A stretch of 64,000 bases of DNA from Actinomycetes bacterium (GCA_021846515.1 JAJZWU010000002.1:40033-104032), one strand, 5' to 3'. Positions 5,977 to 57,371 are shown, numbered from the stretch's first letter. Numbers and translations are program-made. Notes: generated from the sequence alone by a model not told the origin.

Positions 5977-7406
5977 ACACTCCGTCTGATCCTACTCAAG
6001 ATGGCAGCACAGATATTTTGCCTGATGACAGTGCATTGGGCGACCTACCATACACGGGCAGAGCATCCGATACTACCGTTAATTCTTCCGACGCAGACCG
6101 GCTCGATGAATGGGTAAGTCGTGATGCTGCTGTTGTATGGCATGGTTTTACCCAGATGGCAGCTTACCAGGACAACTCTCCGGTTATAGTGGAGAGAGCT
6201 GAAGGCAGGGAAATAATCGACGTGAACGGTAAACGCTATCTTGATGCCATATCGTCGCTGTGGGTAAATACCCTTGGTCACAGAGTTAAGGAGCTTGACG
6301 AAGCCATCGTGGATCAGCTTTCAAGAGTAGCTCACACCACCATGCTCGGCAACGGCAACACTGAGGTGATAAAGCTGGCGGAGGCTCTCTCAAAGGTAGT
6401 TCCATTGGAGAAGCCCCATTTTCTCTTTGCATCTGATGGTGCGTGTGCGGTAGAGCAGGCTCTGAAGATTGCCTATCAGTATTTCGTCAACTCCGGGCAG
6501 CCAATTCGTAACCAATTTTTGGTATTGGGCAATGCTTACCATGGCGACACTGTAGGTTCTATCTCGCTTGGTGATTCAGGGTTCGAAACCCAGATATTTG
6601 ATCAGCTCAAGTTCGATACCGTGAGGTCACCCGGCTACGATGATAAAAATTGGCTGGATAAGGCTCTCTCTGTATTGCACTCGCAGGGTAGCAGGCTATG
6701 TTGTGCAGTAGTCGAACCGCTTGTGCAGGGTGCATCGGGGGTGTGGGTAGCAGAGCCGGAGCACGTATCTGTCTTTAGAGAGGCGTGCAGGGATGTCGGG
6801 GTGCTGTTTGTTGCCGATGAGGTAGCTACAGGGTTTGGGCGTACAGAGGCTATGTTTGCATCCGAAATTTGCGGCATACAACCAGACATAATGTGTATAG
6901 GTAAGGGGCTTACCGGTGGATATCTCCCTATGTCTGCGACTGTTGTATCGGACGATGTGTTTAGTCAGTTCCTTGGGGAGGATCTTGGCTTTAGAACCTT
7001 TTACCATGGTCATTCTTATGGTGGTAATGCGCTATGTGCAGCAGTTGCCTTGAGGCACCTTGAGCTTATGTCTACATGGCATGTGCTTGACAACGTACGA
7101 GATAGAAGCGACCAGCTGGCATCTTTGCTGGATGAGTATATCAGTGGCCATGAATTGGTACGAGAGATAAGACGTAGGGGACTTATGGCAGGTGTGGAGC
7201 TGGATCCATCAGGAGAGGGTTTGAGATGGGGTCGTAAGGTATGCGCCAAAGCTGTTCAAAGGGGAGTATTGTTGCGTCCCCTGGGCGATGTCGTGGTGCT
7301 GGTCTTGCCTCTTACGATTACAGAAGATGAAGTATTGCGCGTTGTCATGGTATTGAGAGAATCGTTGGATGAGTTGGCAGGAGAGGCTTGGGCGGGCTCG
7401 GGATGA
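5958..7406 (+). CDS. bioA: Adenosylmethionine-8-amino-7-oxononanoate aminotransferase
   Basis: Class III aminotransferase with VWHGFTQM and FVADEVATGFGRTE motifs, followed by bioF and bioD. The start is uncertain: ATG 5958 chosen, the ORF opens at GTG 5928. Confidence 0.85.
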   Translation: MASGPVNTPSDPTQDGSTDILPDDSALGDLPYTGRASDTTVNSSDADRLDEWVSRDAAVVWHGFTQMAAYQDNSPVIVERAEGREIIDVNGKRYLDAISSLWVNTLGHRVKELDEAIVDQLSRVAHTTMLGNGNTEVIKLAEALSKVVPLEKPHFLFASDGACAVEQALKIAYQYFVNSGQPIRNQFLVLGNAYHGDTVGSISLGDSGFETQIFDQLKFDTVRSPGYDDKNWLDKALSVLHSQGSRLCCAVVEPLVQGASGVWVAEPEHVSVFREACRDVGVLFVADEVATGFGRTEAMFASEICGIQPDIMCIGKGLTGGYLPMSATVVSDDVFSQFLGEDLGFRTFYHGHSYGGNALCAAVALRHLELMSTWHVLDNVRDRSDQLASLLDEYISGHELVREIRRRGLMAGVELDPSGEGLRWGRKVCAKAVQRGVLLRPLGDVVVLVLPLTITEDEVLRVVMVLRESLDELAGEAWAGSG

Positions 7407-7432
7407 ATGAGAGTTCGGTGAGGACGGGATGA
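7403..7432 (+). CDS. Candidate bridging sORF (9 aa, MNESSVRTG) between bioA and bioF
   Basis: The ATG overlaps the bioA TGA (ATGA at 7403-7406). Its TGA overlaps the bioF ATG (ATGA at 7429-7432). The sequence is a decayed copy of the bioF 5' end. Confidence 0.3.
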   Translation: MNESSVRTG

Positions 7433-14125: not shown

Positions 14126-15778
14126 GTGGATGTTCGCTCTGCACGCGCGGCGGCTGGAGCTGCGATAGAAACTGCACGTGACCAGGTTGGTAAGCTTGAT
14201 TTTATAGGTATCCTTGTCGGCACTGATGACTTGAATGTGGCGGATCAAGTATCATCCGAGATCATCTCGTTTGAAGAGATGGTAGCTGCTGCAAGATCCG
14301 ATCTCAGAGATTTTTCTGCAAAGTCTGGTACATCTCTGCTTTTATCACGGGGGGTAGGTGAGTCTCTGGTGGTGCTACTCGGAACCGGCAATCCCATAGA
14401 GGCGGAGGAGTCTGCATGGCTGGAGTCTCTCCGCCTGGCCGGTGCTGAGTTTTCCCGGACGTTATCGAAAAGAGATACTAAGCGTACCGGATCGGGTGGC
14501 GCCTGTATGATAATTGATCAGCCGACCGCCAGTGCGAGCGCATTACAGGCACTTACAGAGGGAATCCTGCTTGGTTCTTATTGTTTCGATTTATACAAGC
14601 GGGCGGAAGCTGTCCCTGATGGCAAGTACCCGGTTGTGCTTGTAGTATTAGAGGGTGAAGAAGGGGCGCCTGCTGCAGATACAACCCAGGCTGCAGCGCC
14701 GGGAGCCGGAGGACATGTAGAGACGAATGCAGCCCGGGGTGCAGAGAAATGGGATGGGGTAGAGAAGGGAATTATCCTTGCCAAATATACGGCATTTGCC
14801 CGCGATCTGGTTAATACGCCTGCACGTGATATGACTCCAGAGATTTTCTGCGAGCGTGTCAGGGAGGTCGTAGCACAGGCTGGAACTGATAGCAATATTG
14901 GGGTGGGTATTGAGATATGGGATGAAGGGCGCATAGCTGCAGAGCGTATGGGTGGCCTTATTGGGGTTTCAAGTGGTTCTACTCATCCACCAAGGTTGCT
15001 GAAGGCAACTTATGATCCGTACAGTGTTTCTTCTACCGGGGAACAGGATGCTGGAGCGCATATAGTATTGGTAGGTAAGGGAGTGACGTTTGATTCCGGT
15101 GGGCTTTCGTTAAAATCGGCCGATTCTATGGTTACGATGAAGACCGATATGAGCGGTGCCGCGATAGTATGTGCTTCCTTGCTTGCCTGCGCGGAATATG
15201 GCGTGCGTAGCAAAATAACTGCGATTGCGCCATTGACCGAGAATATGCCAGGAGAGGATGCTATAGCACCCGGGGATGTCCTGACTATTCGTAATGGTAG
15301 CACGGTAGAAGTTCTCAATACTGATGCTGAAGGTAGGCTCATTTTGGCAGATGCATTATCTTTGGCGACCGAGTTATCTCCTGATGTGATTATAGATGTG
15401 GCTACTCTGACTGGGGCTTGTGTAATAGCATTGGGGAAGAGGGTGGCTGGAGTGTTTACCAACAGGGATAACCTGTTTGGTGCCCTGGATAGTGCTGCAT
15501 TGATTGCCGGAGAGCCTATCTGGAGGCTACCCCTTGTGGACAAGTATCGTGATCATATAGACTCGGAAATTGCGGATATGAAAAATATTGGCAAGCCTGG
15601 TCAGGCCGGGTCTATTGTTGCTGCACTCATGTTGGAGAGGTTTGTAAATGATATGCCCTGGGCACACTTGGATATTGCCGGTCCTGCCAGATCCGACGAA
15701 GACTCGGGTTATATGCAAAAGGGCGCTACCGCATTTGGCATAAGGCTACTTGGCGAGTATATCTGCAGAAATATTTAG
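14126..15778 (+). CDS. pepA: Leucyl aminopeptidase (M17)
   Basis: 550 aa with the NTDAEGRLILAD signature and VGKGVTFDSGG. GTG start; start uncertain. Confidence 0.85.
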   Translation: MDVRSARAAAGAAIETARDQVGKLDFIGILVGTDDLNVADQVSSEIISFEEMVAAARSDLRDFSAKSGTSLLLSRGVGESLVVLLGTGNPIEAEESAWLESLRLAGAEFSRTLSKRDTKRTGSGGACMIIDQPTASASALQALTEGILLGSYCFDLYKRAEAVPDGKYPVVLVVLEGEEGAPAADTTQAAAPGAGGHVETNAARGAEKWDGVEKGIILAKYTAFARDLVNTPARDMTPEIFCERVREVVAQAGTDSNIGVGIEIWDEGRIAAERMGGLIGVSSGSTHPPRLLKATYDPYSVSSTGEQDAGAHIVLVGKGVTFDSGGLSLKSADSMVTMKTDMSGAAIVCASLLACAEYGVRSKITAIAPLTENMPGEDAIAPGDVLTIRNGSTVEVLNTDAEGRLILADALSLATELSPDVIIDVATLTGACVIALGKRVAGVFTNRDNLFGALDSAALIAGEPIWRLPLVDKYRDHIDSEIADMKNIGKPGQAGSIVAALMLERFVNDMPWAHLDIAGPARSDEDSGYMQKGATAFGIRLLGEYICRNI

Positions 15779-18780: not shown

Positions 18781-19718
18781 TGACCGAAGAACTGAGCGCG
18801 CAAGCTCCTGTCTTTGGGTCGAGGGATAATCTTAGAGGGAGTGGCGAGCGTCCTGCCGTGGTGGCCATTGGCGGTGGTCATGGCCTCTCGGTCACCCTGC
18901 GAGCATTGACGAGTTATGCAGGTGATATAAGCGGCATTGTCTCTGTTGCCGACGACGGTGGATCATCGGGCAGGCTTCGTAAGATACTTGGTACTGTTCC
19001 ACCTGGAGACCTTCGTAAATGCCTGGTTGCGTTGGCTCCTAAGGATTCGTTGCTGGCAACGCTTTTCGAGTACCGTTTCCATGATGGGGAGCTTAATGGT
19101 CATGCACTTGGCAACCTCATATTGACAGCGTTGTTTGAGCATTGTGGAGATTTGCAGACTGCTCTCAATGAGGCAGGAAAGCTGCTGTCTGCCAAGGGAA
19201 GGGTACTCCCAGCGGCTGTGCATCCTGTGGTTCTGGAGGCTGACACAGACAATGGCAAGGTAAAAGGCCAGACGGCGGTGATGAACTCAGGCTCAATCAT
19301 CCACCTGGGAATGCAGCCTACCGACCCACAGGTATCAGATGAGGTGCTGTCGGCAATACGCAACGCCGATCAGATCGTGATAGGTCCTGGATCGCTGTTT
19401 ACCAGTGTAATAGCAGCATCAGGTATACCGGCGGTGGCAAGAGAGATTGCTCAGGCTTGCTGTCCCCGTGTATATGTAGCCAATTTAAGGGAACAACCGG
19501 GGGAGACAAGCGGTTATGACATGGCCGATCATCTCCTTGCACTCCGAGAGCACGGGATTGTGGTGGATGTCGTCCTTACCGACCCGCAGGGGTTATCGTT
19601 GGGGGAGATTGAGATGTCCGGCATAGTAATAGAGAAGAGGAACATCTCGGATGCTCGCGGGCTACTGCACGATCCGGTAAAGCTGGGTGAAGCCCTCAGT
19701 GGATTAGTGCATCTATAA
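18780..19718 (+). CDS. yvcK: YvcK / CofD-like gluconeogenesis-morphogenesis factor
   Basis: 312 aa with AIGGGHGLS and GPGSLFTS motifs. The start overlaps the rapZ stop (TAATG). Confidence 0.9.
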   Translation: MTEELSAQAPVFGSRDNLRGSGERPAVVAIGGGHGLSVTLRALTSYAGDISGIVSVADDGGSSGRLRKILGTVPPGDLRKCLVALAPKDSLLATLFEYRFHDGELNGHALGNLILTALFEHCGDLQTALNEAGKLLSAKGRVLPAAVHPVVLEADTDNGKVKGQTAVMNSGSIIHLGMQPTDPQVSDEVLSAIRNADQIVIGPGSLFTSVIAASGIPAVAREIAQACCPRVYVANLREQPGETSGYDMADHLLALREHGIVVDVVLTDPQGLSLGEIEMSGIVIEKRNISDARGLLHDPVKLGEALSGLVHL

Positions 19719-19796
19719 TGATTCGAGCGACCTGGATGCGCCTTATTTATCAAGGCCGGCGAAAGTTCGTACCAAATTAATGCATCTATAATAATT
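19703..19796. repeat. Direct repeat of the yvcK 3' end including the stop codon (19/21 nt, period 73)
   Basis: ATTAGTGCATCTATAATGATT (19703-19723) versus ATTAATGCATCTATAATAATT (19776-19796). Confidence 0.85.
19718..19780 (+). CDS. Candidate sORF (20 aa, MIRATWMRLIYQGRRKFVPN) coupled to the yvcK stop
   Basis: The ATG overlaps the yvcK TAA (TAATG). The ORF ends in a second TAATG that lies inside the duplicated copy of the yvcK 3' end. Confidence 0.2.
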   Translation: MIRATWMRLIYQGRRKFVPN

Positions 19797-25273: not shown

Positions 25274-26290
25274 ATGCGTTATGTAGATGTCCATGGAGTC
25301 AAGCTATCTGCTATTGGTTTGGGTACCTGGCAATTTGGCTCCAAGGAGTGGAACTATGGAAGCAGCTACGAGGAGAAGGAATCGGCTGCTATAGTGCATA
25401 AGGCTTTGGACCTGGGTGTCAACGTAATAGATACTGCTGAGGCTTACGGCTGGGGTCGGTCGGAAAGGGCGGTCGGTAGGGCGATTGTATCTCGCAGGGA
25501 TGAAGCCTTTATTGCTACAAAAGTATTTCCCGTTATGCCGGTGGAGCCTGTAATTAAGGATAGAGCCAGGCGTAGTGCCTCCAGGCTTGGTGTGCAGAGT
25601 ATAGATCTGTATCAGATACATTGGCCGAACCCTGTAATCCCTTTGAACCTGACTATGAGGGCAATGGCATCGCTCCAGAGGAGCGATTTGGTCAAGAACA
25701 TAGGGGTATCAAACTTTTCACTGGCTTTGTGGCAGCAGGCTGAGCGTTTTTTATCAGGCAAGGTGCTGAGCAACCAGGTGCGCTACAATTTGCTCGACAG
25801 AAGGATAGAGAACAACGTACTTCCCTGGGCGGAAGAAACAGGGCATGTGGTGATAGCTTACAGTCCACTTGCACAGGGGGTTTTATCCGGCAGGTATTCC
25901 AGAGGTAATATTCCCACCGGTCTAAGGGCTTATACGGCAGCCTTCCAGCCTGAAAATCTTGATAAGGCGATACCGGTAATAGATGCCTTGAAACGTATAG
26001 CCTTGGAACACGGCGCCACGCCTACGCAGGTGGCCTTGGCATGGCTTATAAGCAAACCTAATGTAGTGGTGATACCAGGCGCCAGTTCCATATCTCAGCT
26101 GCAGGCTAATGTTGAGTCGGCGCAGCTGGATTTGACTGATGAAGATATAAGTGAATTGAACGACGTTTCCAGTATCTATAAATTGTCGTCCGGTTTGACC
26201 GATCAGCTTACACGTGCCGCCAGGGCTGGTCAGCTACTGGCGTCAAGAACGCTAAAAAGATATATTCGGCCGGTTAAATCAGCCTGGTAA
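25274..26290 (+). CDS. Aldo/keto reductase
   Basis: 338 aa with LGTWQFG, IDTAEAYG, DLYQIHWP and IPGASS motifs. Confidence 0.85.
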   Translation: MRYVDVHGVKLSAIGLGTWQFGSKEWNYGSSYEEKESAAIVHKALDLGVNVIDTAEAYGWGRSERAVGRAIVSRRDEAFIATKVFPVMPVEPVIKDRARRSASRLGVQSIDLYQIHWPNPVIPLNLTMRAMASLQRSDLVKNIGVSNFSLALWQQAERFLSGKVLSNQVRYNLLDRRIENNVLPWAEETGHVVIAYSPLAQGVLSGRYSRGNIPTGLRAYTAAFQPENLDKAIPVIDALKRIALEHGATPTQVALAWLISKPNVVVIPGASSISQLQANVESAQLDLTDEDISELNDVSSIYKLSSGLTDQLTRAARAGQLLASRTLKRYIRPVKSAW

Positions 26291-26310
26291 CGATCAAATC
26301 AGCCTGGTAA
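26276..26310. repeat. Exact 15-nt direct repeat containing the aldo/keto reductase stop codon (period 20)
   Basis: AAATCAGCCTGGTAA occurs at 26276-26290 and again at 26296-26310. Confidence 0.9.
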
Positions 26311-26337: not shown

Positions 26338-26445
26338 GATCTCATGGTACGAGGTATGGCGGTGCGACTTATGGTAGCTGACGTAGTAAATAGTCTCTAT
26401 AATTTTTTCAATCATGCTATACACCAAGGTGAGCATGTGTTGCAT

Positions 26446-31523: not shown

Positions 31524-33024
31524 GGGTTGCCAGGATTGATGCCATAGTAGACAGGAATGCCGCTACGTATGCTCCGTCTACTGCACGATGATCAAACGAC
31601 ATGGCGAGTACGCCCACCGAATGTATTGCTATGCTCTCAGCTCCGAATGAGTCTGTGACGACGACCGGTTTGCGTTTTACTCCGTCGGTTGACAGTATGG
31701 CAACTTGGGGTTGGTTGATGATAGCTACGGTCATTAAGGTTCCGTAATGCCCTGCGTTGGTAATTGAAAAAGTTCCTCCGCTGATATCGTCTGCAGCCAA
31801 CTGTCGTGTACGTGCCCTCGTCGCCAGGTCGTGTATGCGTCTGGCCATGCCGCGCAGTGTGAGGTCATCTGCTCTGTGCACTACCGGCACAATGAGACCC
31901 TCATGGTTTATATCTACCGCAATACCGAGATTGATTTTATGATGAACTACCAGAGAATCATCTACAACTGATGCATTAAGTCTCGGCCATTGTTTCAGTG
32001 CTTCTACTGCTGCACGGGCAGCAAATGGCAGATAGGAAAGAGTGTATCCCTCCTCGGCGCGGAAACGCTCCCCATATAGATGCCTTACCTGCTCAACGGC
32101 TTCATAGTCCGCTTCCATGGAGATCAGCGTATGGGGCGAGGTTGCCTTTGACATAACCATATGCTCTGCCGTCCTACGCCTGATGTTGTCGAATGGTATT
32201 ATCTCGTCAGATCCTGCCAAGGGGGTCACTGTTTCCTGCGACCTCAGTGATAGAGGTTCTGTCTGTAGCTGTTGTGTACGTAGGGTCTGTGGCTGCGTGT
32301 ACTCTGGCAGGCCTTGTTGCTTTTCTGGGCTTGGCGGTTCTGCCTGCCATGCCTGTAGGCGGCTATCCTGCCCTGCTTGCCCTGGTAGACCTTCCGGCAG
32401 ATGGCCCTTCTGCCTTACTTGCGCCTTGGAGGCGAGGACATCTTCTCGCGTAATCCTCCCACCGGTACCGGTAGGGATAACCTTAGAGGGATCTATCCCT
32501 TGTTCGGCTATCATGCGACGCACCAATGGAGAGGTGAGCGTGCCATTTAATGTAGCGCTGCCACTCTCTGGGTCGTTGTTACTGCTTAAGCTGGCATCGA
32601 GAGAACTCGAAGTCTGGCTGATCGAATCATTTACTCCCACTGCAGGTCTGTCGATTTGTGGCGGTACTGGGCTGTCGGATCGTGGAATTATGGGGGTATT
32701 GACTTGCAGTGCGATAGGGTCAGGAGTTTCGATTTGTGGCGGTAGGGGGCTGCTAGATTGCAGTGGAGCAGAACTGGCATCTTGTGATGATAGTGGCACC
32801 ACTCCGTCTACAGAGATAACTGCCAGCTGAGTTCCTACGAAAACAGTATCTCCTTCCTGCACGAGGATCTGGGTAAGAATGCCAGAAGCTGGCGACGGCA
32901 CCTCAGAGTCAACTTTATCGGTAGATATTTCGAATAAGGGCTCATCCCTGATTACCTCTTCGCCGACCGACTTGAGCCAACGAGTAATAGTTCCTTCAGT
33001 GACTGTCTCACCAAGTTGTGGCAT
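31501..33024 (-). CDS. Dihydrolipoamide acyltransferase (E2 of a 2-oxoacid dehydrogenase complex)
   Basis: Lipoyl domain (MPQLGETVTEGTI...ISTDKVDSEV), long P/S/Q-rich linkers, PSBD (SPLVRRMIAEQGID) and catalytic DHRAVDG. ATG 33024 is preferred over TTG 33048. Confidence 0.85.
   Translation of the reverse strand: MPQLGETVTEGTITRWLKSVGEEVIRDEPLFEISTDKVDSEVPSPASGILTQILVQEGDTVFVGTQLAVISVDGVVPLSSQDASSAPLQSSSPLPPQIETPDPIALQVNTPIIPRSDSPVPPQIDRPAVGVNDSISQTSSSLDASLSSNNDPESGSATLNGTLTSPLVRRMIAEQGIDPSKVIPTGTGGRITREDVLASKAQVRQKGHLPEGLPGQAGQDSRLQAWQAEPPSPEKQQGLPEYTQPQTLRTQQLQTEPLSLRSQETVTPLAGSDEIIPFDNIRRRTAEHMVMSKATSPHTLISMEADYEAVEQVRHLYGERFRAEEGYTLSYLPFAARAAVEALKQWPRLNASVVDDSLVVHHKINLGIAVDINHEGLIVPVVHRADDLTLRGMARRIHDLATRARTRQLAADDISGGTFSITNAGHYGTLMTVAIINQPQVAILSTDGVKRKPVVVTDSFGAESIAIHSVGVLAMSFDHRAVDGAYVAAFLSTMASILATHDFITEI
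32651..32744. repeat. In-frame 78-nt (26-codon) duplication in the E2 linker
   Basis: TCGATTTGTGGCGGTA is exact at 32651-32666 and 32729-32744. It encodes PLPPQIE / PVPPQID on the minus strand. Confidence 0.8.
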
Positions 33025-41418: not shown

Positions 41419-42308
41419 GATCATTTATAACTGGCGGATACGGATTTGTCGGTCGATGGATGGTATCGCTTTTGGAGAGCCAGGGCGATGATGTGCGCTT
41501 GCTAAGTAAGGGTACAGACATAAGGGACTTTGATTCACTCGCCGGCGAATTGATCGCCCATGAGCCAGATGTGATATATCATTTCGCTGGCTTTACTCAT
41601 GTGGGACTCTCATGGGAACAGCCGAGAGATGCTATCGAGATCAATGCTATTGGCGCCTTGAATGTTCTGGAGGCTGCCCGTAAATGCAATAATTCGCCGA
41701 GAATACTACTGCCGAGTTCTGCGGAGATTTATGGTACAGTCGACGAAGCGGATCTGCCCCTTGGCGAAAGTTCAGCAATAAGACCAATGACCCCGTATGC
41801 TGTAAGCAAGGTAACAGTAGAGTACCTTGGCCTTCAGTCATATATGGCTTACGGGTTGGACGTCGTTATGGCCAGACCATTTAACCATATAGGCCCCGGA
41901 CAACCGTCATCGTTTTTTGTACCGGCACTGGCAGAGAGGATTTTGAATGCACAAAAGGTGGGTGGGCACTCAGTATCGGTAGGCAATTTATCCAGCAGGA
42001 GGGATCTTACTGACGTAAGAGACGTTGTAAGGGCATACAGGATGCTTGCCGGTAGCGGAAAAGCAGGTGAAATATATAATGTTTGCACCGGAGAGGATGT
42101 ATCTATGGCCCAGGTGGCTGAGTCGATGGCGGAGATTGCCAATGTGGAGATAGAGTTCGTGCCGGATCCGTCACTTATGAGACCGGTGGACATCCCTGTT
42201 CTTAGAGGAGATCCTCAGAAGTTAAAAATGGCAACAGATTGGGCTCCGCAGTACAGCTTGAGAGAGACGTTGGCAGACGTGCTGGACGAACGAAGATCGA
42301 TTTTATGA
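41415..42308 (+). CDS. NAD-dependent sugar epimerase/dehydratase/reductase (GDP-sugar reductase-like)
   Basis: ITGGYGFVGRW Rossmann motif and YAVSK (YxxxK). ATGA overlap with the upstream gene. Confidence 0.8.
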   Translation: MRSFITGGYGFVGRWMVSLLESQGDDVRLLSKGTDIRDFDSLAGELIAHEPDVIYHFAGFTHVGLSWEQPRDAIEINAIGALNVLEAARKCNNSPRILLPSSAEIYGTVDEADLPLGESSAIRPMTPYAVSKVTVEYLGLQSYMAYGLDVVMARPFNHIGPGQPSSFFVPALAERILNAQKVGGHSVSVGNLSSRRDLTDVRDVVRAYRMLAGSGKAGEIYNVCTGEDVSMAQVAESMAEIANVEIEFVPDPSLMRPVDIPVLRGDPQKLKMATDWAPQYSLRETLADVLDERRSIL

Positions 42309-42348
42309 AATGCCATAAACTGTTGCCGGTCGAGCGGGATGGCGTTCA

Positions 42349-42768
42349 ATGAGCGTAGATGTCAATGGGCAGTCTGGTAGTACCGTTAATCGGACATTAT
42401 TGGGGAAACTTGGAGAGCGCCAGACAGTACTTGCGTACAGGCGCAAGGGTTACAGCATTCTCTCTACAAATTGGCGAAGCAATAGAAGCGGTGTACGTGG
42501 CGAGATAGACATTGTTGCGTCCAAGGGTGACACTCTTGTCTTCTGTGAGGTAAAGACGCGTGCTCAGGATAGGTACGGGGAGCCGGAAGAGGCAGTTACG
42601 GCAGTCAAGCAGGCAAGGCTGAGGAGACTTGCGGGCGAGTGGCTCAATGAGCATCGTACAGATGGCTCTTTGGATGGCCATTTGAGGGAAATTCGCTTCG
42701 ATGTATCTGCGGTTGTGCTTGGAGAAGACGGCCACCTGTCTGCTCGGCTCATCAGGGATGCCTTTTGA
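42349..42768 (+). CDS. yraN: YraN family (UPF0102) endonuclease-like protein
   Basis: 139 aa. GEIDIVASKGDTLVFCEVKTR is typical of the family. Confidence 0.8.
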   Translation: MSVDVNGQSGSTVNRTLLGKLGERQTVLAYRRKGYSILSTNWRSNRSGVRGEIDIVASKGDTLVFCEVKTRAQDRYGEPEEAVTAVKQARLRRLAGEWLNEHRTDGSLDGHLREIRFDVSAVVLGEDGHLSARLIRDAF

Positions 42769-44998: not shown

Positions 44999-45670
44999 AT
45001 GAGAGAGCTACAGCTTGCTCCCTCTGTGCTATCTGCCGACTTTGCCTCTCTCGGTGACGCCGTACGTTCGGTACAGGAGCAGGCCAGTTGGATTCACGCC
45101 GATATCATGGATGGTCATTTTGTCCCCACTCTTACCATGGGTCCCCTCACGGTCAAAGCGCTGGCTGCAGTTACTGACGTTCCTGTTGAATGCCACTTAA
45201 TGGTCACCAATCCGTGGGATTTAATCGAGCAGTTTGTGCAGTCTGGGGCTGCTCGCTGTACCGTACATGTCGAAGTTGGCCGTGTCACAGAGATTATCGA
45301 GAGGGCCAGATATCTTGGTATTGGAATCGGTGTGGCATTAAACCCAGAGACCCCTGTATCAGAAGTATTGCCCTACCTGGAGCTAGTCGATGTAATACTT
45401 GTTATGACTGTTCATCCTGGTTTTGGCGGTCAGAAATTTATTTCCGAGGTAGTTCCCAAGATAACTGAGATATCGGAGTATATTCGCAAGAACTCCCTGA
45501 GTGTGGATATAGAGGCAGATGGGGGTATCGGACCTGAAACAGTTGCTCAGGTGGTAGATGCGGGCGCCAACGTGCTTGTAGCCGGATCGGCCATCTTCTC
45601 TGCTGGCGCCTCTCCCCCAGATGCTAGTAAAAAATTGCTTCAAGTAGCCGGTGAAGTATTTTTAAGCTAG
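44999..45670 (+). CDS. rpe: Ribulose-phosphate 3-epimerase
   Basis: 223 aa with APSVLSADF, HADIMDGHFVP and MTVHPGFGGQKF motifs. Confidence 0.95.
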   Translation: MRELQLAPSVLSADFASLGDAVRSVQEQASWIHADIMDGHFVPTLTMGPLTVKALAAVTDVPVECHLMVTNPWDLIEQFVQSGAARCTVHVEVGRVTEIIERARYLGIGIGVALNPETPVSEVLPYLELVDVILVMTVHPGFGGQKFISEVVPKITEISEYIRKNSLSVDIEADGGIGPETVAQVVDAGANVLVAGSAIFSAGASPPDASKKLLQVAGEVFLS

Positions 45671-45680
45671 ACTGAGGCCT

Positions 45681-46067
45681 ATGGAAACCCCCGAAAATTT
45701 ACGTTATACCAATGAACATGAATGGGTGTACCTTGATGGTATGTCCGTCAAAGTAGGGATTACCGACTACGCTCAAGATGCGCTCGGCGATGTCGTATAT
45801 GTGGATCTACCCGATCTGGGAAAGATATTCTCGCCTGGAGATGTATTTGGCGAGATTGAATCGACCAAGTCTGTTTCTGAATTGTATGCTCCAATGAGCG
45901 GTAAGGTAGTGGAGATTAATACAGAATTGGAAGATCATCCCGAACTTGTCAATAGTGACCCTTATGGCCAGGGGTGGTTGTGTGTCTTTGAGGCAACTAA
46001 TCCATCTGACTATGATAGTCTTTTGGATGCCGCCGGGTATCGGGCTGCAATCTCAACCGAGCAATGA
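45681..46067 (+). CDS. gcvH: Glycine cleavage system H protein
   Basis: 128 aa with YTNEHEW and the lipoyl-lysine motif EIESTKSVSELYAP. Confidence 0.95.
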   Translation: METPENLRYTNEHEWVYLDGMSVKVGITDYAQDALGDVVYVDLPDLGKIFSPGDVFGEIESTKSVSELYAPMSGKVVEINTELEDHPELVNSDPYGQGWLCVFEATNPSDYDSLLDAAGYRAAISTEQ

Positions 46068-46165
46068 CATCGGTTATGTTGCCTACGCCTCCAGGACCCA
46101 CTGCTGCAATCTCAACGGAGCAATGCAATGATATTGATTGCATAGTAGTAGGATTGAGATCATGA
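46064..46165 (+). CDS. Candidate bridging sORF (33 aa) between gcvH and the FHA gene
   Basis: The ATG overlaps the gcvH TGA (ATGA at 46064-46067). Its TGA overlaps ATG 46162 (ATGA). It re-encodes the gcvH C-terminus AAISTEQ from a 22/23-nt repeat (46044-46066 and 46103-46125). Confidence 0.3.
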   Translation: MTSVMLPTPPGPTAAISTEQCNDIDCIVVGLRS

Positions 46166-46653
46166 ACGTGTACTGTCCCAGTTGTGGCCATCGAAATCCA
46201 AGAGGTTCAAGTTTTTGCGCTTCGTGCGGCTCCGCACTTGTTGAGGAGTCCAGTGAAGCTACTATTGCAATTGTACCGGTAGAGGGACTCGGTGACGATC
46301 AGGGAGATGTTCGTGACGACGACCTGGGTAGAGATAGATCGGGACACGCTATGCTCGTGGTTCGCCGTGGTCCCAACGCGGGTGCACACTACACACTCGA
46401 GAAAGATGTAGTTAAATTGGGCAGGCATCCCGAGAGTGAGATATTCTTGGATGATATTACCGTGTCAAGGAGGCATGCGGAGGTAAGGAAGGAGGGTTCC
46501 GGATTGCACGTAGTCAGAGATGTAGGTTCACTGAATGGTACTTATGTAAACAGAGAGAGGGTAGATGAAGCTGTTTTGGATTCGGGTGATGAGCTCCAGA
46601 TAGGGAAGTTCAGGCTTGTGTATATTTCGGGTGTTGCCGATGAAGGGGAGTGA
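46162..46653 (+). CDS. FHA domain protein with N-terminal zinc ribbon (GarA/OdhI position)
   Basis: CPSCGHRNPRGSSFCASCG zinc ribbon followed by an FHA core (LGRHPESEIFLDDITVSRRHAEV...SLNGTYVN). TTG 46138 is an alternative start. Confidence 0.85.
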   Translation: MNVYCPSCGHRNPRGSSFCASCGSALVEESSEATIAIVPVEGLGDDQGDVRDDDLGRDRSGHAMLVVRRGPNAGAHYTLEKDVVKLGRHPESEIFLDDITVSRRHAEVRKEGSGLHVVRDVGSLNGTYVNRERVDEAVLDSGDELQIGKFRLVYISGVADEGE

Positions 46654-47678
46654 TGGGTCGTATGGAACATGAGCCACAGAGAAGCGTGGAAGAACGTCCG
46701 TATCTGTCTATAGGTGATGTCCTGGATATTTTAAGAGACGAATTCCCGGAGATCACCATATCAAAGATTCGATTTCTTGAAAGCCAGGGATTGATAAATC
46801 CTGAGCGAACTCCTTCGGGCTATAGGAAGTTCTTTGAGGAAGACATAGAACGCTTGAAATGGGTGCTTCGCCAGCAGCGTGAGCATTACCTTCCACTGAA
46901 GGTTATCAAAGGTAAGCTGGAAGGTCGCATACCCCATGGAAACGGTGATACCAGGAACGTCGTAGACGAGCAACCTGCCCAGTCTGTACAGGTACTGCAC
47001 AAGAAAGAGGATAGCCAGAATGCCCAGGCGAGTGTCCATCCCGCCTCATCTGAGAGTAGCCGTGAAAAAGCAGATATCGACGAAACATACACCAGGCCAG
47101 GCAGTAGAGTAGAGCAGAATGCTGTTTGGTCGAGTAATGATGGATTGACCAGAGTCCAGAGGATGGGAGCCGAGAGAGGTGGAGCTGGGCAGAACAGGAT
47201 AAAACAGGCCGGTGGTATGTCTGGTGCTGCTTACAGCTCAGTAAGAGCAGAGATAGGTAGGGTTGGAATGGTTGGATCCGCACCAGAGCATAGTGCCGGG
47301 CAATCTGAGCAGGAGCCGGTGGCAGGCGAGGGTGCTTCCTCTTCTGTGCTCAAAGAATTGGAGAGCTACGGACTAATATCGGGAGAGCGTATAGGTGGAG
47401 TAATCACCTATGGCACTTCCGATGCTGAGATCAGCAGCATTGCTTCAAGCATCATGGAGTATGGGTTTGAAGCGCGTCACCTCAAGGTATTCAAGCACGC
47501 GGTAGACAGGGAGGTATCTATAATCGAGCAGGCCGTTGTGCCATTGCTAAAGCAGCGTAATCCAAAATCGCTCGAAAAGGCCAGAGATAGCGCAAAAGAG
47601 CTTTTGCATTTGTCTGAAAAATTGCACAGTGCACTTATGAGAGCGGAACTGAACAGGATGTTCCCGCCGGGCGACTGA
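46650..47678 (+). CDS. MerR family transcriptional regulator (FtsR/Rv1828-like)
   Basis: MerR HTH (LSIGDVLDIL...ISKIRFLESQGLINPERTPSGYRKF), a low-complexity linker and a conserved C-terminal domain. GTGA overlap with the FHA gene. Confidence 0.8.
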   Translation: MMGRMEHEPQRSVEERPYLSIGDVLDILRDEFPEITISKIRFLESQGLINPERTPSGYRKFFEEDIERLKWVLRQQREHYLPLKVIKGKLEGRIPHGNGDTRNVVDEQPAQSVQVLHKKEDSQNAQASVHPASSESSREKADIDETYTRPGSRVEQNAVWSSNDGLTRVQRMGAERGGAGQNRIKQAGGMSGAAYSSVRAEIGRVGMVGSAPEHSAGQSEQEPVAGEGASSSVLKELESYGLISGERIGGVITYGTSDAEISSIASSIMEYGFEARHLKVFKHAVDREVSIIEQAVVPLLKQRNPKSLEKARDSAKELLHLSEKLHSALMRAELNRMFPPGD

Positions 47679-52559: not shown

Positions 52560-53117
52560 ATGTTTGTCTTAGGCGTAGACCCTGGTTTAACTCGTTGTGG
52601 ATATGGTCTTATTAGGCAGGAAGCCAGGCATGCAAGTGTCCGTAGCCCTGCGGTGGCAGTTAGTGGTGGAATTATCGCGACAGATCAAAGACTCGACATC
52701 CCTAGAAGACTAAGTATGCTCATGGAAGAGCTTAAGCTGCTGATAGAAGAGAGTCGCCCTGACGTAGTGGTTGTGGAAAGGGTGTTTTTTCAGGCAAATG
52801 CCAAGACTGCTGTCGGTATCGGGCAAGCTGGTGGACTTGCGTTGGCTCTGGCGGATTCTGCCGGTTGCGAGATTGCTCAGTACAGCTCCAATGAAGTTAA
52901 GCTGGCGGTTACCGGATATGGAGGTGCTACCAAGCTGCAGGTGCAGCGTATGATCTCGTCATTGCTGGGTCTTAATGGACTTCCATCGCCCCCCGATGTG
53001 GCAGACGCGCTTGGGCTTGCACTATGTTACCTCCTCAACCTGCCAATGCGAGAGGCTTTGATTGCATCTGGTGAGCCATTATCGGGTGTCGCGGCTATGA
53101 GGTCAGGTGACGGATGA
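52560..53117 (+). CDS. ruvC: Crossover junction endodeoxyribonuclease RuvC
   Basis: 185 aa with VLGVDPGLTRCGYG, VVVERVFF and ADALGLALC motifs. Confidence 0.9.
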   Translation: MFVLGVDPGLTRCGYGLIRQEARHASVRSPAVAVSGGIIATDQRLDIPRRLSMLMEELKLLIEESRPDVVVVERVFFQANAKTAVGIGQAGGLALALADSAGCEIAQYSSNEVKLAVTGYGGATKLQVQRMISSLLGLNGLPSPPDVADALGLALCYLLNLPMREALIASGEPLSGVAAMRSGDG

Positions 53118-53188
53118 TCGGTTGGTTAATAGTCAATGTATGCGGTATGCTCACCGGGAGGTTGCGGAAAGTGCAGAGTAGCCGATGA
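53114..53188 (+). CDS. Candidate bridging sORF (24 aa, [24 protein letters not shown]) between ruvC and ruvA
   Basis: ATGA overlap with the ruvC stop and ATGA overlap with the ruvA start. Its 5' end is a decayed copy of the ruvA 5' end (first 12 nt identical). Confidence 0.3.
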   Translation: MIGWLIVNVCGMLTGRLRKVQSSR

Positions 53189-54015
53189 TCGGTTGGCTGA
53201 AGGGTAATGTACGTGCCGTCGATCCGGGAGGATTTCTTATACTCGACGTAGGAGGTGTCGGTTATAAGGTAAATGTTCCCCAATTTATGGTAGACATTCC
53301 AGCCGGTGGAGAGTTGGAACTTTTTGTACATACCCATGTCAGGGAGGACGCTATTACCCTTTACGGGTTTGCTACCGATGCAGAGAGGCTGGCTTTTGAG
53401 AAGCTGATTGGAGCTCACGGCGTGGGCCCTTCGTTGGGATTGGCCATACTGTCTGTTCTCGGGATCGGAGACCTGTATGACGTTGTTGTCAGCGAGAATA
53501 TAGATTTGCTCTGTACCGTGCCAGGGATTGGCCGAAAAACTGCCGCTAAATTGGCAATAGATCTGAAATCCAGTATTGATGCGCTGGCTGCCGCTCAAGA
53601 TTCCATGAGTGTTGCCTTGACCGGAGATGCATTGAATCATAGTTCCTTGAGCAATTCCCGGGTCGGCGAAGAAGGAGGAGACGATGGCAATAGCAGAGGG
53701 GTAAGTGGCGGTGGTGGAGATGGTGGCAACTACGCCAGGGGCGACTATGCCATGGCTGACAATGCCGGCGGTGGCAGTGAAAGCGATTCCCTCGAAAATA
53801 GAAGCAGCAGCAATGGTCGTAGTGGGAGCAGGAAGGTTGGCAGTAACAGTATGGATAGTGCCCGCGCGCGATCAGAAGCCAGGTCTGCACTGTTGTCTCT
53901 CGGATACAGCTTGGAAGAGATCCGGGTTGCAATGAGAGATGCGGGTAGCGGTCAGGCGACAGAGGATATATTGAGAAATGCGTTAAAGCAATTAAACAGG
54001 AATCGAGGCGAGTAG
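53185..54015 (+). CDS. ruvA: Holliday junction branch migration protein RuvA with an expanded linker
   Basis: MIGWLKGNV start, OB and HhH domains ([12 protein letters not shown]), and C-terminal domain III ([15 protein letters not shown]). A G/S/N/D-rich insert of about 85 aa separates domains II and III. Confidence 0.9.
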
Positions 54016-54017
54016 CT

Positions 54018-55100
54018 ATGGGTGCCAGGAAAGAGGTTATAAACAGGGACTCATCGGAGTATGATGATGTGTTACTGGTTGATTCCCGCCAGACAGCCCC
54101 TGGAGCGATATCTGGTGAGTATGCCGAAGAAGCCAAACTGAGGCCCAGGGCGCTTGCTGATTTTACCGGACAGAGGGATCTAGTCGAACACCTCAGTATA
54201 GTCATTGAGGCAGCAAGAAAGCGAGGAGGATGTGCCGATCATATACTGTTTGCAGGGCCTCCCGGCCTTGGCAAGACATCGCTGGCAGGTATAGTGGCGG
54301 CAGAGATGGGGGTAGGTATGAGGATCACCTCCGGGCCGGCACTTACCAGGGCGGGAGACCTAGCTGCCATACTTACCGATATGCAAGAGGGGGATGTGCT
54401 CTTCATAGACGAGATTCATCGTATGGTTGTGGCAACTGGCGAAATACTCTATCCCGCGATGGAGGACTTCAAGATAGATATAGTAATAGGTAAAGGTCCT
54501 GCAGCCAAGTCTATAAGGTTGGATATTCCGAGATTTACCCTGGTGGGGGCTACAACCAGGATGGGTATGCTCGCTGGGCCGCTTCGTGACAGGTTTGGTT
54601 TTGTGGGCAGGCTTGATCTGTACCCCGTAGAAGATCTGGCTGAAATTGTGTTGCGTTCTGCCGGCATACTTGAAATAGAGATAAATGCTGATGCAGCATT
54701 GGAGATTGCCAAACGTTCAAGGGGTACGCCCAGGATAGCCAATAGGCTACTGCGCAGGGTGCGTGATTTTGTGGAGGTGCGTTCTGACGGAATCATTACT
54801 CCTGCTTCAGCCATTGCCGGGCTGGATACATTTGGAGTGGACGAACTTGGGCTCGATAAGGTGGACAGATCTATACTTGATGTGCTGTGCGTACGGTTTG
54901 ACGGCAACCCGGTAGGGCTGACCACTCTTGCACAATCTGTCGGAGAAGATCCGGATACCATTGAAGATGCCTACGAACCGTACTTACTCCAGATTGGGCT
55001 AATGCAGCGTACTCCCAGGGGACGGATAGCAAGTGCACGGGCATTTGCGCATCTGCGCATAGAACACCCCGTGATGGGAAGGTTCGACGTTTCACGCTAG
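54018..55100 (+). CDS. ruvB: Holliday junction DNA helicase RuvB
   Basis: 360 aa with [11 protein letters not shown] (Walker A), LFIDEIHR and [15 protein letters not shown] motifs. Confidence 0.95.
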
Positions 55101-55191
55101 TGCCATTTTTCTCGGCAAATTATCGGCTATTGTATGTAGAGCATGGCTCTACAGAGGGCATCAATCCATTTACAAGTGAGGAAAGATTATA

Positions 55192-55752
55192 GTGTTTGAT
55201 ACAATATTTAATAGTGGTAACATAATTATGGCAGGCGTTATTCATCTTGCTGCGGCTGTTTCGCACTCGAAAACCGCATCTTCGAGTTCGTCTTCTTCCG
55301 GTAGCATAATATATCTGCTTTTCATGGTGCTTATCGTGTATGTGGGCTGGAGACTCATCTTCAGGCCGCAGTCTCAACGAGCCAAGCAGCAGCGACAGGC
55401 CATGTCAGCGTTGAGTGAGGGGGATGATGTCATTACTACGGCCGGAATATATGGCACTATCCTCGAAATAGATGGTGACAAGGTTCATGTGCGCGTGAGC
55501 GACAACTGTGTCCTTACTATGGCAAGGGGCAGTATTGCGCAGAGATTGACCATGTCTGCGTCGGAGGACGATTCTTATGAATCGGAATCAGGGCTTAACG
55601 AGTCACCTGAGGAGTCGACCGATGACTATGGCGCAGAGGAGGAAGGTGCTTACGATCATGATGATCAAGATGATGATGATGATGATGATGAATCTGAGGA
55701 TATCGTTGCAGGAGGTGCCGATGATGAGTATGATAATCGTAACAGAATGTAG
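55192..55752 (+). CDS. yajC: Preprotein translocase subunit YajC with an acidic C-terminal tail
   Basis: TM helix followed by RPQSQRAKQQRQAMSALSEGDDVITTAGIYGTI. GTG start 8 nt after GAGGAAAG. The tail contains (GAT)7 at 55669-55689. Confidence 0.8.
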   Translation: MFDTIFNSGNIIMAGVIHLAAAVSHSKTASSSSSSSGSIIYLLFMVLIVYVGWRLIFRPQSQRAKQQRQAMSALSEGDDVITTAGIYGTILEIDGDKVHVRVSDNCVLTMARGSIAQRLTMSASEDDSYESESGLNESPEESTDDYGAEEEGAYDHDDQDDDDDDDESEDIVAGGADDEYDNRNRM

Positions 55753-55791: not shown

Positions 55792-57324
55792 ATGAAACGT
55801 TCTTATCTTCTCTCATTGTTTGGAGCCATTATTGTGGCATTGGTTGCATTTGGTGCAGTCCTTTCTGCCGGGTGGTCGCCGAAGCTTGGGCTGGACCTTG
55901 CCGGTGGCGAGGAAGTCGTATATCGTCCTGCTCATGCAGTTCCTCCAAACTATATGACCGAGTCAGTCGATATTATCAATAGCCGTATAAATGGCCTTGG
56001 ACTATCGGGGGCAAATGTCGGTACGCAGGGGGGCGATATTATTGTCCAGCTTCCTGGAGTAAAGAATCCGCAGCAGGTAATAAACACCATAGGTGAGACG
56101 GCACAGCTTTATTTCAGGCCTGCACTCTGTGAGGCGCCACCGTATACTCCCCCTACCGCCAGCAAGGGCAGTAAAGCTCCTACTTCTCCGGGACCGTTGC
56201 CCACGTCATGCCCGTCGGCCAACCAGCTTACCGCTACAAATCTTGGTGTAAAAGCCAGCTCGTCTTCGACGACAGGTTTTACAGAGAACCCTGTACCGGC
56301 AGACAGTGCATTGGCCAGCTACCCCAGCACTCCTGCAAGCAAAGATAATCCATCCTCTGTTGTGCTGCTGCCAGCGTCCAAGTCGTCAGGGCAGGCTGGA
56401 GTGCGTTACCTACTGGGTCCTGCGCAGGTGACAGGTAAGGCACTTTCAGGCGCCTCTTCGACGTTTATCCCGGGTACAGGGTGGGTGGTCAACTACACTC
56501 TTAACTCGGCAGGTGCAGTAGCATGGGATAAACTTGCTCAAGCCCAGTTCCACGCTATTGTAGCCATAGATATGGATGCCCAAGTTGTATCTGCCCCTAT
56601 TATACAGCCGTCACAGTCTGCCTTTACTTCCTTTGGTGGTAGCGGCCAGATAAGTGGCAACTTTACCCATACAAGTGCGTCCAGTCTGGCGCTGGTACTC
56701 CAGTATGGTTCTTTGCCTGTGCCGCTTCACAGGATAACAACAGAGACTGTATCGGCCACGCTCGGACATTCATCATTGAGAGCCGGGCTATTGGCGGGAA
56801 TCATAGGGTTGGCAATTGTCTTGCTCTATATGCTGTTCTATTACCGTGTACTTGGGCTGGTAGTTTTAACTGGGTTACTGCTCACCGCTGCGTTGCTGTG
56901 GGCAATCGTCTCTATTTTCAGCCATGTAAGTGGGCTCACCCTGGACCTCGCAGGGGTTACCGGATTGATCGTATCTGTAGGGATTACCGTTGATTCGTAT
57001 GTAGTGTATTTCGAACGCCTGAAAGATGAAGCCAGATCAGGTCGCTCGATAAGGACAGGAGTCGAGAGGGGCTTCAAGAACGCCTTTCGAACTGTTCTGG
57101 CTGCTGACCTTGTGTCACTGCTGGCTGCCGTGCTGTTGTGGTTCCTAGCTATTGGAACCGTAAAAGGTTTTGCCTTTTTCTTGGGACTCTCTACCCTGCT
57201 TGACATCTTTACCACCTACTTCTTTACCCGGCCATTGGTAATTATGCTTGGGCAGAATAGAGAGGTTACAGAAGCTCGTCATATTGGAGTGTCGAGTGGT
57301 TTGGCTGCGGAGGCGCATTCATGA
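55792..57324 (+). CDS. secD: Protein translocase subunit SecD
   Basis: 510 aa with LGLDLAGG, the periplasmic domain and C-terminal TM bundle (GITVDSYVVYFERLKDE). Confidence 0.9.
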   Translation: MKRSYLLSLFGAIIVALVAFGAVLSAGWSPKLGLDLAGGEEVVYRPAHAVPPNYMTESVDIINSRINGLGLSGANVGTQGGDIIVQLPGVKNPQQVINTIGETAQLYFRPALCEAPPYTPPTASKGSKAPTSPGPLPTSCPSANQLTATNLGVKASSSSTTGFTENPVPADSALASYPSTPASKDNPSSVVLLPASKSSGQAGVRYLLGPAQVTGKALSGASSTFIPGTGWVVNYTLNSAGAVAWDKLAQAQFHAIVAIDMDAQVVSAPIIQPSQSAFTSFGGSGQISGNFTHTSASSLALVLQYGSLPVPLHRITTETVSATLGHSSLRAGLLAGIIGLAIVLLYMLFYYRVLGLVVLTGLLLTAALLWAIVSIFSHVSGLTLDLAGVTGLIVSVGITVDSYVVYFERLKDEARSGRSIRTGVERGFKNAFRTVLAADLVSLLAAVLLWFLAIGTVKGFAFFLGLSTLLDIFTTYFFTRPLVIMLGQNREVTEARHIGVSSGLAAEAHS

Positions 57325-57371
57325 GATATGGATTAGTGTGTCGAGGAGTTTCTATGGAGTTGGCTGAATGA
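57321..57371 (+). CDS. Candidate bridging sORF (16 aa, MRYGLVCRGVSMELAE) between secD and secF
   Basis: ATGA overlap with the secD stop (57321-57324) and ATGA overlap with the secF start (57368-57371). TTGGCTG is repeated upstream of both junctions. Confidence 0.3.
   Translation: MRYGLVCRGVSMELAE

Follow-up and report, generated by a model that had tools for sequence, protein, structure and literature searches.

How does an open reading frame (ORF) come to begin within the stop codon of one gene and to end within the start codon of the next, and can such a frame serve the expression of its neighbours? The question is raised by the junction between gcvH, which encodes the glycine cleavage H protein, and the gene for a zinc-ribbon plus FHA-domain protein (here called the FHA gene) in a stretch of 64,000 nucleotides (nt) from Actinomycetes bacterium (GCA_021846515.1 JAJZWU010000002.1:40033-104032), which was analysed over its whole length of 64 kb and is referred to as the window. 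The initial annotation had described a repeat of the gcvH 3' end with a single mismatch, a 33-codon ORF that overlaps the gcvH stop and the FHA start by an ATGA at either end, and a second repeat copy that re-encodes the GcvH peptide AAISTEQ. The repeat reads as described, the ORF is confirmed by translation, and the offset between the copies places the second one in the gcvH phase. We consider it probable that the arrangement is the scar of a recent duplicative insertion and that the ORF acts, at most, as a relay for ribosomes.

Structure of the insertion

The 23-nt sequence GCTGCAATCTCAACCGAGCAATG at positions 46044-46066 occurs a second time at 46103-46125, where a single position differs (C46058 versus G46117). 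No further match with up to three mismatches is present in the 64 kb, and none was obtained in 100 dinucleotide shuffles. If an indel of 5 nt is allowed, the repeat extends beyond these 23 nt into two copies of unequal length (X and X', Table 1). The first copy is made up of the last 21 nt of the gcvH coding sequence, the TGA stop codon, and the 8 nt with which the ancestral spacer begins (CATCGGTT), and its tail, ACATCGGTT, is identical in the sister species L088. The second copy contains the 23-nt sequence with its mismatch, an extra CAATG at 46126-46130, and the tail ATATTGATT, which differs from that of the first copy by three transitions.

The two copies are separated by a filler of 27 nt (Y), which resembles neither flank (6-7 of 27 positions identical, as compared by eye). 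The filler is absent from the sister species, occurs only once in the window (with up to three mismatches allowed, and with no seeds of 12 nt or more elsewhere), and has no match in the clade loci examined or in viral contigs. The inserted segment thus covers 46076-46139, a total of 64 nt, and consists of the filler followed by a repeat copy with an internal 5-nt duplication of CAATG. The resulting form is X-Y-X': two copies of a 32-nt segment spanning the gcvH stop codon enclose 27 nt of unrelated filler. A simple tandem duplication was considered and rejected, since the filler matches neither flank.

The minus strand of the filler (46076-46102) would encode the peptide VGPGGVGN, which resembles a Walker A motif, and a core of 21 nt matches exactly the region encoding the P-loop of a guanylate kinase gene (gmk) at positions 3695-3715 of L106, an unrelated metagenome contig. 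The organism from which this contig derives is absent from the mine-drainage runs in which the window locus is found. The filler could have been templated from a P-loop gene, or the match could reflect chance or conservation of the motif; we treat it as one of the latter two.

Origin of the insertion

To place the insertion in an evolutionary context, GcvH homologues at graded levels of identity were used to obtain contigs from relatives. A neighbour-joining tree of the flanking coding DNA gave the topology ((((window, L086), L088), L091 group), L095), with L096 and L098 as the outgroup, and the strain L086/L104 is 99.3% identical to the window over 20 kb. When positions 46076-46139 are removed from the window spacer, the remainder, CATCGGTT followed by GCATAGTAGTAGGATTGAGATC, corresponds to the L088 spacer with two substitutions, and the 64 nt are therefore an insertion in the window lineage. 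In L086, the mismatch in the 23-nt repeat is located at a different position than in the window, and the two copies were therefore identical in the common ancestor of the two strains. A repeat that was perfect in this ancestor, while the gcvH 3' ends differ between species, argues for a recent copying event. Furthermore, a significant similarity to the gcvH 3' end is found in the window spacer only, where the best match is to the gcvH end of the same genome (score 42, with 13.6 expected). We conclude that a duplicative insertion of 64 nt entered an ancestral spacer of 30 nt after the split from the nearest sister species, and that the CAATG micro-duplication and a few substitutions came later in the second copy. 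That the junction carries a recent, lineage-specific duplicative insertion is a conclusion that we draw with high confidence.

The initial annotation had taken the spacer between gcvH and garA to be normally short in relatives, which the comparison contradicts: over 53 distinct gcvH-FHA loci the spacer ranges from 27 to 185 nt, and spacers of 28-30 nt are found only in the nearest sister species. As an alternative to a recent insertion, a long spacer that included a copy of the gcvH end may have been ancestral, such that the short spacers arose by two repeat-mediated deletions and the copies in the window became nearly identical by recent gene conversion. Parsimony on spacer length alone is tied, with two events either way, and the spacers of L095 (127 nt) and of the outgroup L096/L098 (74 nt) are also long. 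Direct repeats are also known to promote precise deletions. The window insert shows weak collinear similarity to L095 (P = 0.04), as does L095 to L098 (P = 0.011), and the former leaves some room for an older origin, as a point against a recent one. However, the spacers of L095, L096, and L098 contain no significant copy of any gcvH 3' end (P = 0.09-0.9), and the second copy in the window fits its own gcvH end far better than the ends of other species. The scenario also requires that two deletions occurred independently between identical end points, in addition to the gene conversion, and because of these additional assumptions we rate it as improbable. An ancient duplication shared with L095, L096, and L098 is likewise not supported, even though the weak similarity remains.

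No variation in the spacer was seen within the species among contigs from the same samples, and the tandem copy number is the same in seven contigs (the window, five identical metagenome contigs, and L086), with the limitation in both cases that contigs drop rare variants. A sister species with a spacer of 28 nt co-occurs in these samples. In runs X1, X3, and X4, the region 45600-46700 is covered about 5-10x for the window species, 50-60x for the sister with the 28-nt spacer, and 16-64x for a relative of the L098 type, and long- and short-spacer forms thus coexist in one mine-drainage community. Within the 23 nt of the second copy, the window and L086 differ by two changes, as compared to 0.56% genome-wide; clusters of substitutions occur elsewhere too. 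When genome and metagenome collections were scanned with exact patterns of the repeat or of the locus, nothing or only the sister species was returned.

The bridging frame

The ATG at 46064 overlaps the gcvH stop codon at 46065-46067, and the TGA at 46163-46165 overlaps the FHA start codon at 46162, so that the frame is open between two overlaps of 4 nt with its co-oriented neighbours (46064-46067 and 46162-46165). The copies are offset by 59 nt, which equals 2 modulo 3, and the second copy is for this reason read in the gcvH frame from the bridge ATG. Both overlaps are by-products of conserved coding sequence: the first ATGA derives from a glutamine codon and the stop (CAATGA), and the second from the methionine and asparagine codons at the start of the FHA gene (ATGAAC). 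By simple arithmetic, the frame would immediately after the duplication have ended at the TGA of the second copy itself, 31 nt before the FHA start. With the CAATG duplication, this TGA is no longer in frame, and the first in-frame stop thereafter is the one overlapping the ATG at 46162. The chance of an open frame in a shuffled spacer of the same composition is 0.16-0.18, and the frame is open largely as a matter of arithmetic, since the gcvH end was copied at an offset of 2 modulo 3.

The second overlap depends on where the FHA protein begins, and the start proposed initially, ATG 46162 rather than TTG 46138, is supported. The N-terminal sequence MNVYCPSCGH is conserved in relatives, an in-frame TAG is located upstream of the start in the L091-type sister, and a TAA immediately precedes the start in L096/L098; on these grounds the protein most probably starts at ATG 46162. 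A later start is excluded in L096, where GCG replaces the GTG two codons downstream, and the gene callers placed the start at ATG 46162 in all contigs of the window species. The gene has its own Shine-Dalgarno sequence, AGGA at 46150-46153, located 8 nt before the ATG.

One explanation for the frame is that it encodes a functional small protein, or that the spacer is a structured cis-regulatory RNA. A frame that is open over 33 codons and re-encodes the C-terminal heptapeptide of GcvH is compatible with the former. However, the ORF is absent from the sister species, its peptide has no Pfam family, and it was never called as a gene by the gene callers, which called gcvH in all contigs of the window species. 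The peptides of the bridges in L095, L096, and L098 are unrelated to it. The second copy has one synonymous and one non-synonymous change between the window and L086, and the bridge peptides of L096 and L098 have 10 of 25 residues in common at a nucleotide identity of 69% (by eye). The 74-nt spacers of these two differ at 31% of their positions (by eye) and contain no indel. As for an RNA element, a scan of the whole window against Rfam gave 0 matches, the spacer and the ORF fold no more stably than shuffled sequences (z = +1.03 and +0.66), and a scan for sigma-70 promoters and intrinsic terminators found no consensus in the spacer. Both a small protein and a regulatory RNA are therefore highly improbable. 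We infer that the bridge ORF does not qualify as a conventional protein-coding gene and that it should not be annotated as one; its peptide would have no role, and the frame may at most act as a ribosome relay that is independent of its sequence. Of the bridge as initially interpreted, the duplication, the ORF, and the FHA start thus stand, while the view that the ORF by itself is a designed coupling device or a small gene does not, given its absence from the sister species and the lack of a family.

Phase and openness of bridging frames

The test set consisted of 83 kb of one contig, namely the window and about 19 kb on its flanks, with 33 same-strand neighbour pairs that have spacers of 20-200 nt. 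Pairs were considered eligible if a start codon overlaps the upstream stop and a stop codon overlaps or abuts the downstream start, which left 11. Ten of these are in the bridging phase (P = 2.4e-4 under a null of 1/3, and P = 0.008 under a conservative null of 1/2), and the frame is open in seven of the ten, as compared to 2.4 expected from shuffles (P = 0.0012). Exclusion of the two cases that had led to the hypothesis, gcvH and ruvC/ruvA, leaves eight of nine pairs in phase (P = 0.0018 or 0.027, respectively) and five of eight open (P = 0.016). The non-eligible pairs show no modulo-3 bias. A bridge of 31 codons in L108 (15806-15901) turned up in sequence that was examined only after the hypothesis had been set. 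Several of the bridge spacers, including those of secD-secF and L108, contain a diverged copy of the 3' end of the upstream gene, and each of the clade's four long gcvH-FHA spacers is spanned by an open frame whose start codon overlaps the gcvH stop and which reaches the FHA start. These results suggest that in-phase, open bridges are over-represented in this genome and that insertions survive when a ribosome relay is kept. In the ruvB-yajC bridge, the GTG start shares its G with the ruvB stop TAG and the final TAG shares its G with the GTG of yajC, across a spacer of 91 nt; the ruvB-yajC spacer in L105 is 129 nt and unbridged.

A relay at the gcvH junction would work as follows. After termination at the gcvH UGA, ribosomes would restart at the AUG that overlaps it and read the bridge; at the second AUGA they would stop once more and restart on the FHA gene, whose translation would in this way remain coupled to that of gcvH across a spacer that has grown from 30 to 94 nt. 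The FHA gene still has AGGA as a ribosome-binding site of its own, and the relay would therefore help its translation without being needed for it. Insertions of this kind might then persist in operons mainly when they are open and in the relay phase. The positive signal in the 83 kb keeps a relay role under consideration, and we put the chance that the relay is used or selected at close to even, if slightly on the lower side.

Several observations weigh against a relay. The eligible sample is small (n = 11), and the start rules of the longest-ORF approach and of Prodigal hide cases that are open in frame, so that the true phase null is located between 1/3 and 1/2. Openness is also partly automatic for a spacer of duplicated coding DNA that is read in its own frame. 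Across 53 distant gcvH-FHA loci there is no enrichment of bridges (14 observed, 16.9 expected), and among sister and outgroup loci in L103 and L105, two of five eligible pairs are in phase and one is open, as expected by chance. The genome-wide test proposed at the outset thus gives a suggestive signal in the 83 kb, with these other loci at or near chance. The bridge ATG at 46064 is not preceded by a Shine-Dalgarno sequence, which the FHA gene has, and coupling may for that reason be irrelevant; the AGGA upstream of the FHA gene speaks against a strict dependence on translation of the bridge. The insertion is absent from the sister species, where the FHA gene is intact behind a spacer of 28-30 nt and the corresponding frame stops after 6 codons in L088 and after 9 in L091. 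Finally, the locus was found in DNA runs only, and the metatranscriptome contigs of the study do not include it.

Many of these observations are also what a purely neutral scar would leave behind, in which the bridge is never meaningfully translated, the FHA gene uses its own AGGA or a separate transcript, and the excess of bridges is an effect of small samples or of ascertainment. The insertion is recent and lineage-specific, the Shine-Dalgarno sequence belongs to the FHA gene and not to the bridge, the bridge peptide is not conserved either between the window and L086 or between L096 and L098, the enrichment does not extend to L103/L105 or the distant loci, and openness follows automatically from duplicated coding DNA at an offset of 2 modulo 3. 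What a neutral scar does not account for is the bias in phase, which within this same genome persists under a null of 1/2, together with the excess of open frames, the L108 bridge in the sequence examined later, and the fact that the CAATG duplication turns a frame that stops 31 nt short into an exact ATGA overlap. We regard the neutral explanation as possible but rather unlikely, and the preferred reading remains an insertion scar with, at most, a relay function. The idea of a bridge is in our view partly supported as a tendency at the level of the genome, either as a relay role that is independent of sequence or as selection that spares only those insertions that preserve a relay, and the evidence is suggestive and falls short of proof.

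Similar duplications at other gene boundaries

The initial annotation had presented the gcvH bridge as the second double-ATGA bridge after that of ruvC/ruvA, and the two junctions indeed belong to the same class of junction duplication, of which further cases exist. The start region of ruvA, GATGATCGGTTGG..., is present twice, at 53113 and 53184, with the copies 71 nt apart (2 modulo 3), and ruvC now ends in the copied ATGA. The bridge ORF at 53114-53188 comprises 24 codons and begins MIGWLIVNV..., as compared to MIGWLKGNV in RuvA, and it is a decayed copy of the RuvA N-terminus. The spacer between ruvC and ruvA is 67 nt in the window and in L104, but only 3 nt in L103 and 4 nt in L105, and the ruvC/ruvA bridge is thus a lineage-specific junction duplication of the same kind as that at gcvH.

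Further cases were obtained from a scan for short-range direct repeats (Table 1). Slipped-strand tandem duplication is represented by the 20-nt repeat at 26271-26310, which is exactly of this kind; at gcvH, in contrast, the segment between the copies is not itself repeated, and the form is X-Y-X' rather than (XY)(XY). Downstream of the 26271-26310 duplication, a TATAAT is located 7 nt before an ATG at 26344, which gives the appearance of a leaderless-type promoter. Each copy of the 19703/19776 repeat contains a perfect TATAAT; the offset is 1 modulo 3, and the short ORF that starts from the TAATG ends short of the next gene, which is 155 nt away. The 32643/32721 repeat is probably a duplicated linker segment. 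The window has no counterpart of the 66-nt X-Y-X' insertion at 14575/14641 in L103, and none of the species-representative genomes searched contains the filler of this insertion, which probably arose within a single strain. Since its length is 0 modulo 3, it could add an in-frame N-terminal extension.

The events share their dimensions, with X of about 21-43 nt, Y of about 27-52 nt, and a period of 59-78 nt. Nine of ten non-tandem short-range repeats in the clade loci (pooled by hand) fall within this range of periods, as compared to 11 of 54 in 490 kb from distant Actinobacteria. The fillers of nine events are mutually unrelated, and no source was found for them in the clade loci examined, the genome and metagenome collections, or the viral contigs. 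A sequence family of the type represented by mycobacterial interspersed repetitive units (MIRUs) or miniature inverted-repeat transposable elements (MITEs) was rejected because the fillers are unrelated and share no consensus. Such insertions nevertheless appear to recur at gene boundaries in the clade, and template switching, end-joining with filler DNA, and off-target Cas1-Cas2 integration are candidate mechanisms.

The last of these would make the X-Y-X' insertions scars of off-target spacer integration by Cas1-Cas2, or by another integrase that makes staggered cuts. The geometry fits, with a repeat-sized X (32 nt at gcvH) around a spacer-sized Y (27 nt), as does the concentration of periods in the clade; every Y is unique and unrelated to the others, and the events are clean insertions of X+Y relative to the sister genomes. 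The generation of new repeat-spacer units by off-target, or non-canonical, Cas1-Cas2 integration, termed neo-CRISPR units, has been reported by Nivala, Shipman and Church (2018), and the insertions resemble these in that a target segment is duplicated around a short unique insert and about 60-75 nt are added. However, the length of X varies between events instead of following a constant integrase ruler, no cas genes or CRISPR arrays are present in the sequences examined (part of the genome), and no Y matches viral contigs, a mobile element, or other sequence examined. Template switching or end-joining with filler DNA would also look the same. We consider an integrase origin to be quite improbable. 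Returning to the relay, it is conceivable, although doubtful, that a process active in this lineage inserts about 60-75 nt, consisting of a target copy and unique filler, at gene boundaries, and that only the insertions that create a relay survive in operons; the expanded spacers between operon genes would then be bridged systematically throughout the genome, which would amount to a MIRU-like solution without the MIRU sequence family.

Table 1. Coordinates of the genes, repeats, spacers, and bridging frames discussed in the text.
Feature	Sequence or contig	Coordinates	Strand	Details
gcvH	window	45681..46067	+	glycine cleavage H protein, 128 aa; Pfam GCV_H, E 8e-41
gcvH stop codon	window	46065-46067	+	TGA
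Repeat copy 1 (X)	window	46044..46075	+	32 nt; ...GAGCAATG then ACATCGGTT
Filler (Y)	window	46076..46102	+	27 nt; ATGTTGCCTACGCCTCCAGGACCCACT
Repeat copy 2 (X')	window	46103..46139	+	37 nt; ...GAGCAATG, CAATG, ATATTGATT
Ancestral proximal spacer	window	46140..46161	+	GCATAGTAGTAGGATTGAGATC; conserved in L088, L091, L102, L095
Bridge ORF	window	46064..46165	+	33 codons, MTSVMLPTPPGPTAAISTEQCNDIDCIVVGLRS; ATGA at both ends
Zinc-ribbon plus FHA protein gene	window	46162..46653	+	163 aa; Pfam FHA and Zn_Ribbon_1
gcvH-FHA spacer	window, five identical metagenome contigs, strain L086/L104			94 nt
gcvH-FHA spacer	L088/L089			30 nt
gcvH-FHA spacer	L091/L092/L101/L102			28 nt
gcvH-FHA spacer	L095			127 nt
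gcvH-FHA spacer	L096-L100 (outgroup)			74 nt
gcvH-FHA bridge	L095	1206-1340		44 codons; ATGA...ATGA
gcvH-FHA bridge	L096 and L098	2887-2964		25 codons; TTGA...TAA abutting TTG
Open bridge	window	7403-7432		9 codons
Open bridge	window	42305-42352		15 codons
Open bridge, ruvB-yajC	window	55100-55192		30 codons; TAGTG to TAGTG
Open bridge, secD-secF	window	57321-57371		16 codons
Open bridge	L108	15806-15901		31 codons; TTGA to TAA abutting ATG
ruvA start region, duplicated	window	53113..53211	+	GATGATCGGTTGG..., duplicated 71 nt upstream at the ruvC end
Direct repeat	window	19703-19723 / 19776-19796		period 73; last 21 nt of yvcK-like gene including TAA and overlapping ATG, 90% identity
Tandem duplication	window	26271-26310		pure 20-nt tandem; 3' end and TAA of aldo/keto-reductase-like gene (CGGTTAAATCAGCCTGGTAA / CGATCAAATCAGCCTGGTAA)
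Direct repeat	window	32643-32674 / 32721-32752		32 nt, period 78; in frame within minus-strand E2 acyltransferase gene
X-Y-X' insertion	L103	14575/14641 (14575-14678)		period 66, 100% identical; 38-nt segment spanning start codon of minus-strand gene; 28-nt unique filler
Direct repeat	L103	14701/14770		period 69
Direct repeat	L103	19116/19186		period 70; spans ruvB stop
Direct repeat	L103	8188/8254		period 66
Direct repeat	L105	2001/2074		period 73

Comparison with known systems

The closest parallel for an insertion that carries its own translational overlaps is provided by the MIRUs. Common MIRU units are 53 and 77 nt long, and these lengths, like the offsets of 59 and 71 nt observed here, are all 2 modulo 3. 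A review that summarises Supply et al. 1997 (PMC12548453) describes MIRU ORFs that are coupled at -4 nt to the flanking genes, for example in senX3-regX3, and an overlap arrangement that is thought to permit insertion with little effect on the downstream gene. The gcvH insertion is likewise found in an actinobacterial genome, is located between operon genes, falls within 50-100 nt in length, and contains a short ORF with overlaps of 4 nt to both neighbours. However, MIRUs are a dispersed family with a consensus and a variable tandem copy number, whereas the insertions here combine a local copy of the target with a unique filler, which in the case of gcvH has no second copy in the 64 kb.

Termination-reinitiation at an AUGA has been described for uPPE2-PPE2 in M. 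tuberculosis, where an upstream ORF acts as the relay, and NUGA overlaps are common in Actinobacteria (PMC11260477). The stop codon of the bridge ORF overlaps the downstream start in the same manner, and in both cases the UGA of a short ORF overlaps a downstream AUG to which it could deliver ribosomes. The two systems differ in that PPE2 lacks a Shine-Dalgarno sequence and depends on an upstream ORF with its own Shine-Dalgarno sequence and riboswitch control, whereas the FHA gene keeps its AGGA. The bridge itself, unlike uPPE2, has no Shine-Dalgarno sequence, and its own translation would depend on reinitiation at the upstream stop, as a double overlap.

Genomic context

The window has a GC content of about 50%, its nearest genomes are metagenome-assembled genomes of Acidimicrobiia, and the runs that contain the locus are mine-drainage metagenomes. 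The species is thus an acid-mine-drainage member of the Acidimicrobiia. The order of genes at the locus is rpe, gcvH, the zinc-ribbon plus FHA gene, a gene for a MerR protein with an Rv1828_C domain, and a gene for a BFN-domain protein, which we take to match the Rv1826-Rv1829 neighbourhood of M. tuberculosis, and the FHA gene is therefore the positional counterpart of garA/odhI. The protein encoded at this position contains an N-terminal zinc ribbon (CPSCGH...CASCG), in place of which GarA has a threonine-rich phospho-motif at its N-terminus. In most of the acidimicrobial relatives, the FHA protein starts directly at (M/V)-F/Y-C. In seven high-GC distant relatives (L001, L003, L006, L016, L028, L039, and L080), the FHA frame continues upstream without a stop codon as far as a GTG or TTG whose bases overlap the gcvH stop (GTGA), and the protein may in these start at the overlap, with an extension of 15-30 residues.

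Implications

Taken by itself, the gcvH repeat is a young mutational scar. It illustrates that a double stop-start overlap can arise in a single step from the duplication of a gene junction at an offset of 2 modulo 3, and junction duplication thereby offers an uncomplicated route to relay ORFs and perhaps to MIRU-like minisatellites. If in-phase and open bridges prove to be in excess over the whole genome, this would be evidence from nature that termination-reinitiation coupling limits which insertions operons tolerate. Short ORFs of arbitrary sequence could then serve purely to carry ribosomes across long spacers, a role that has been discussed in the literature on translational coupling and for which there are few natural examples.

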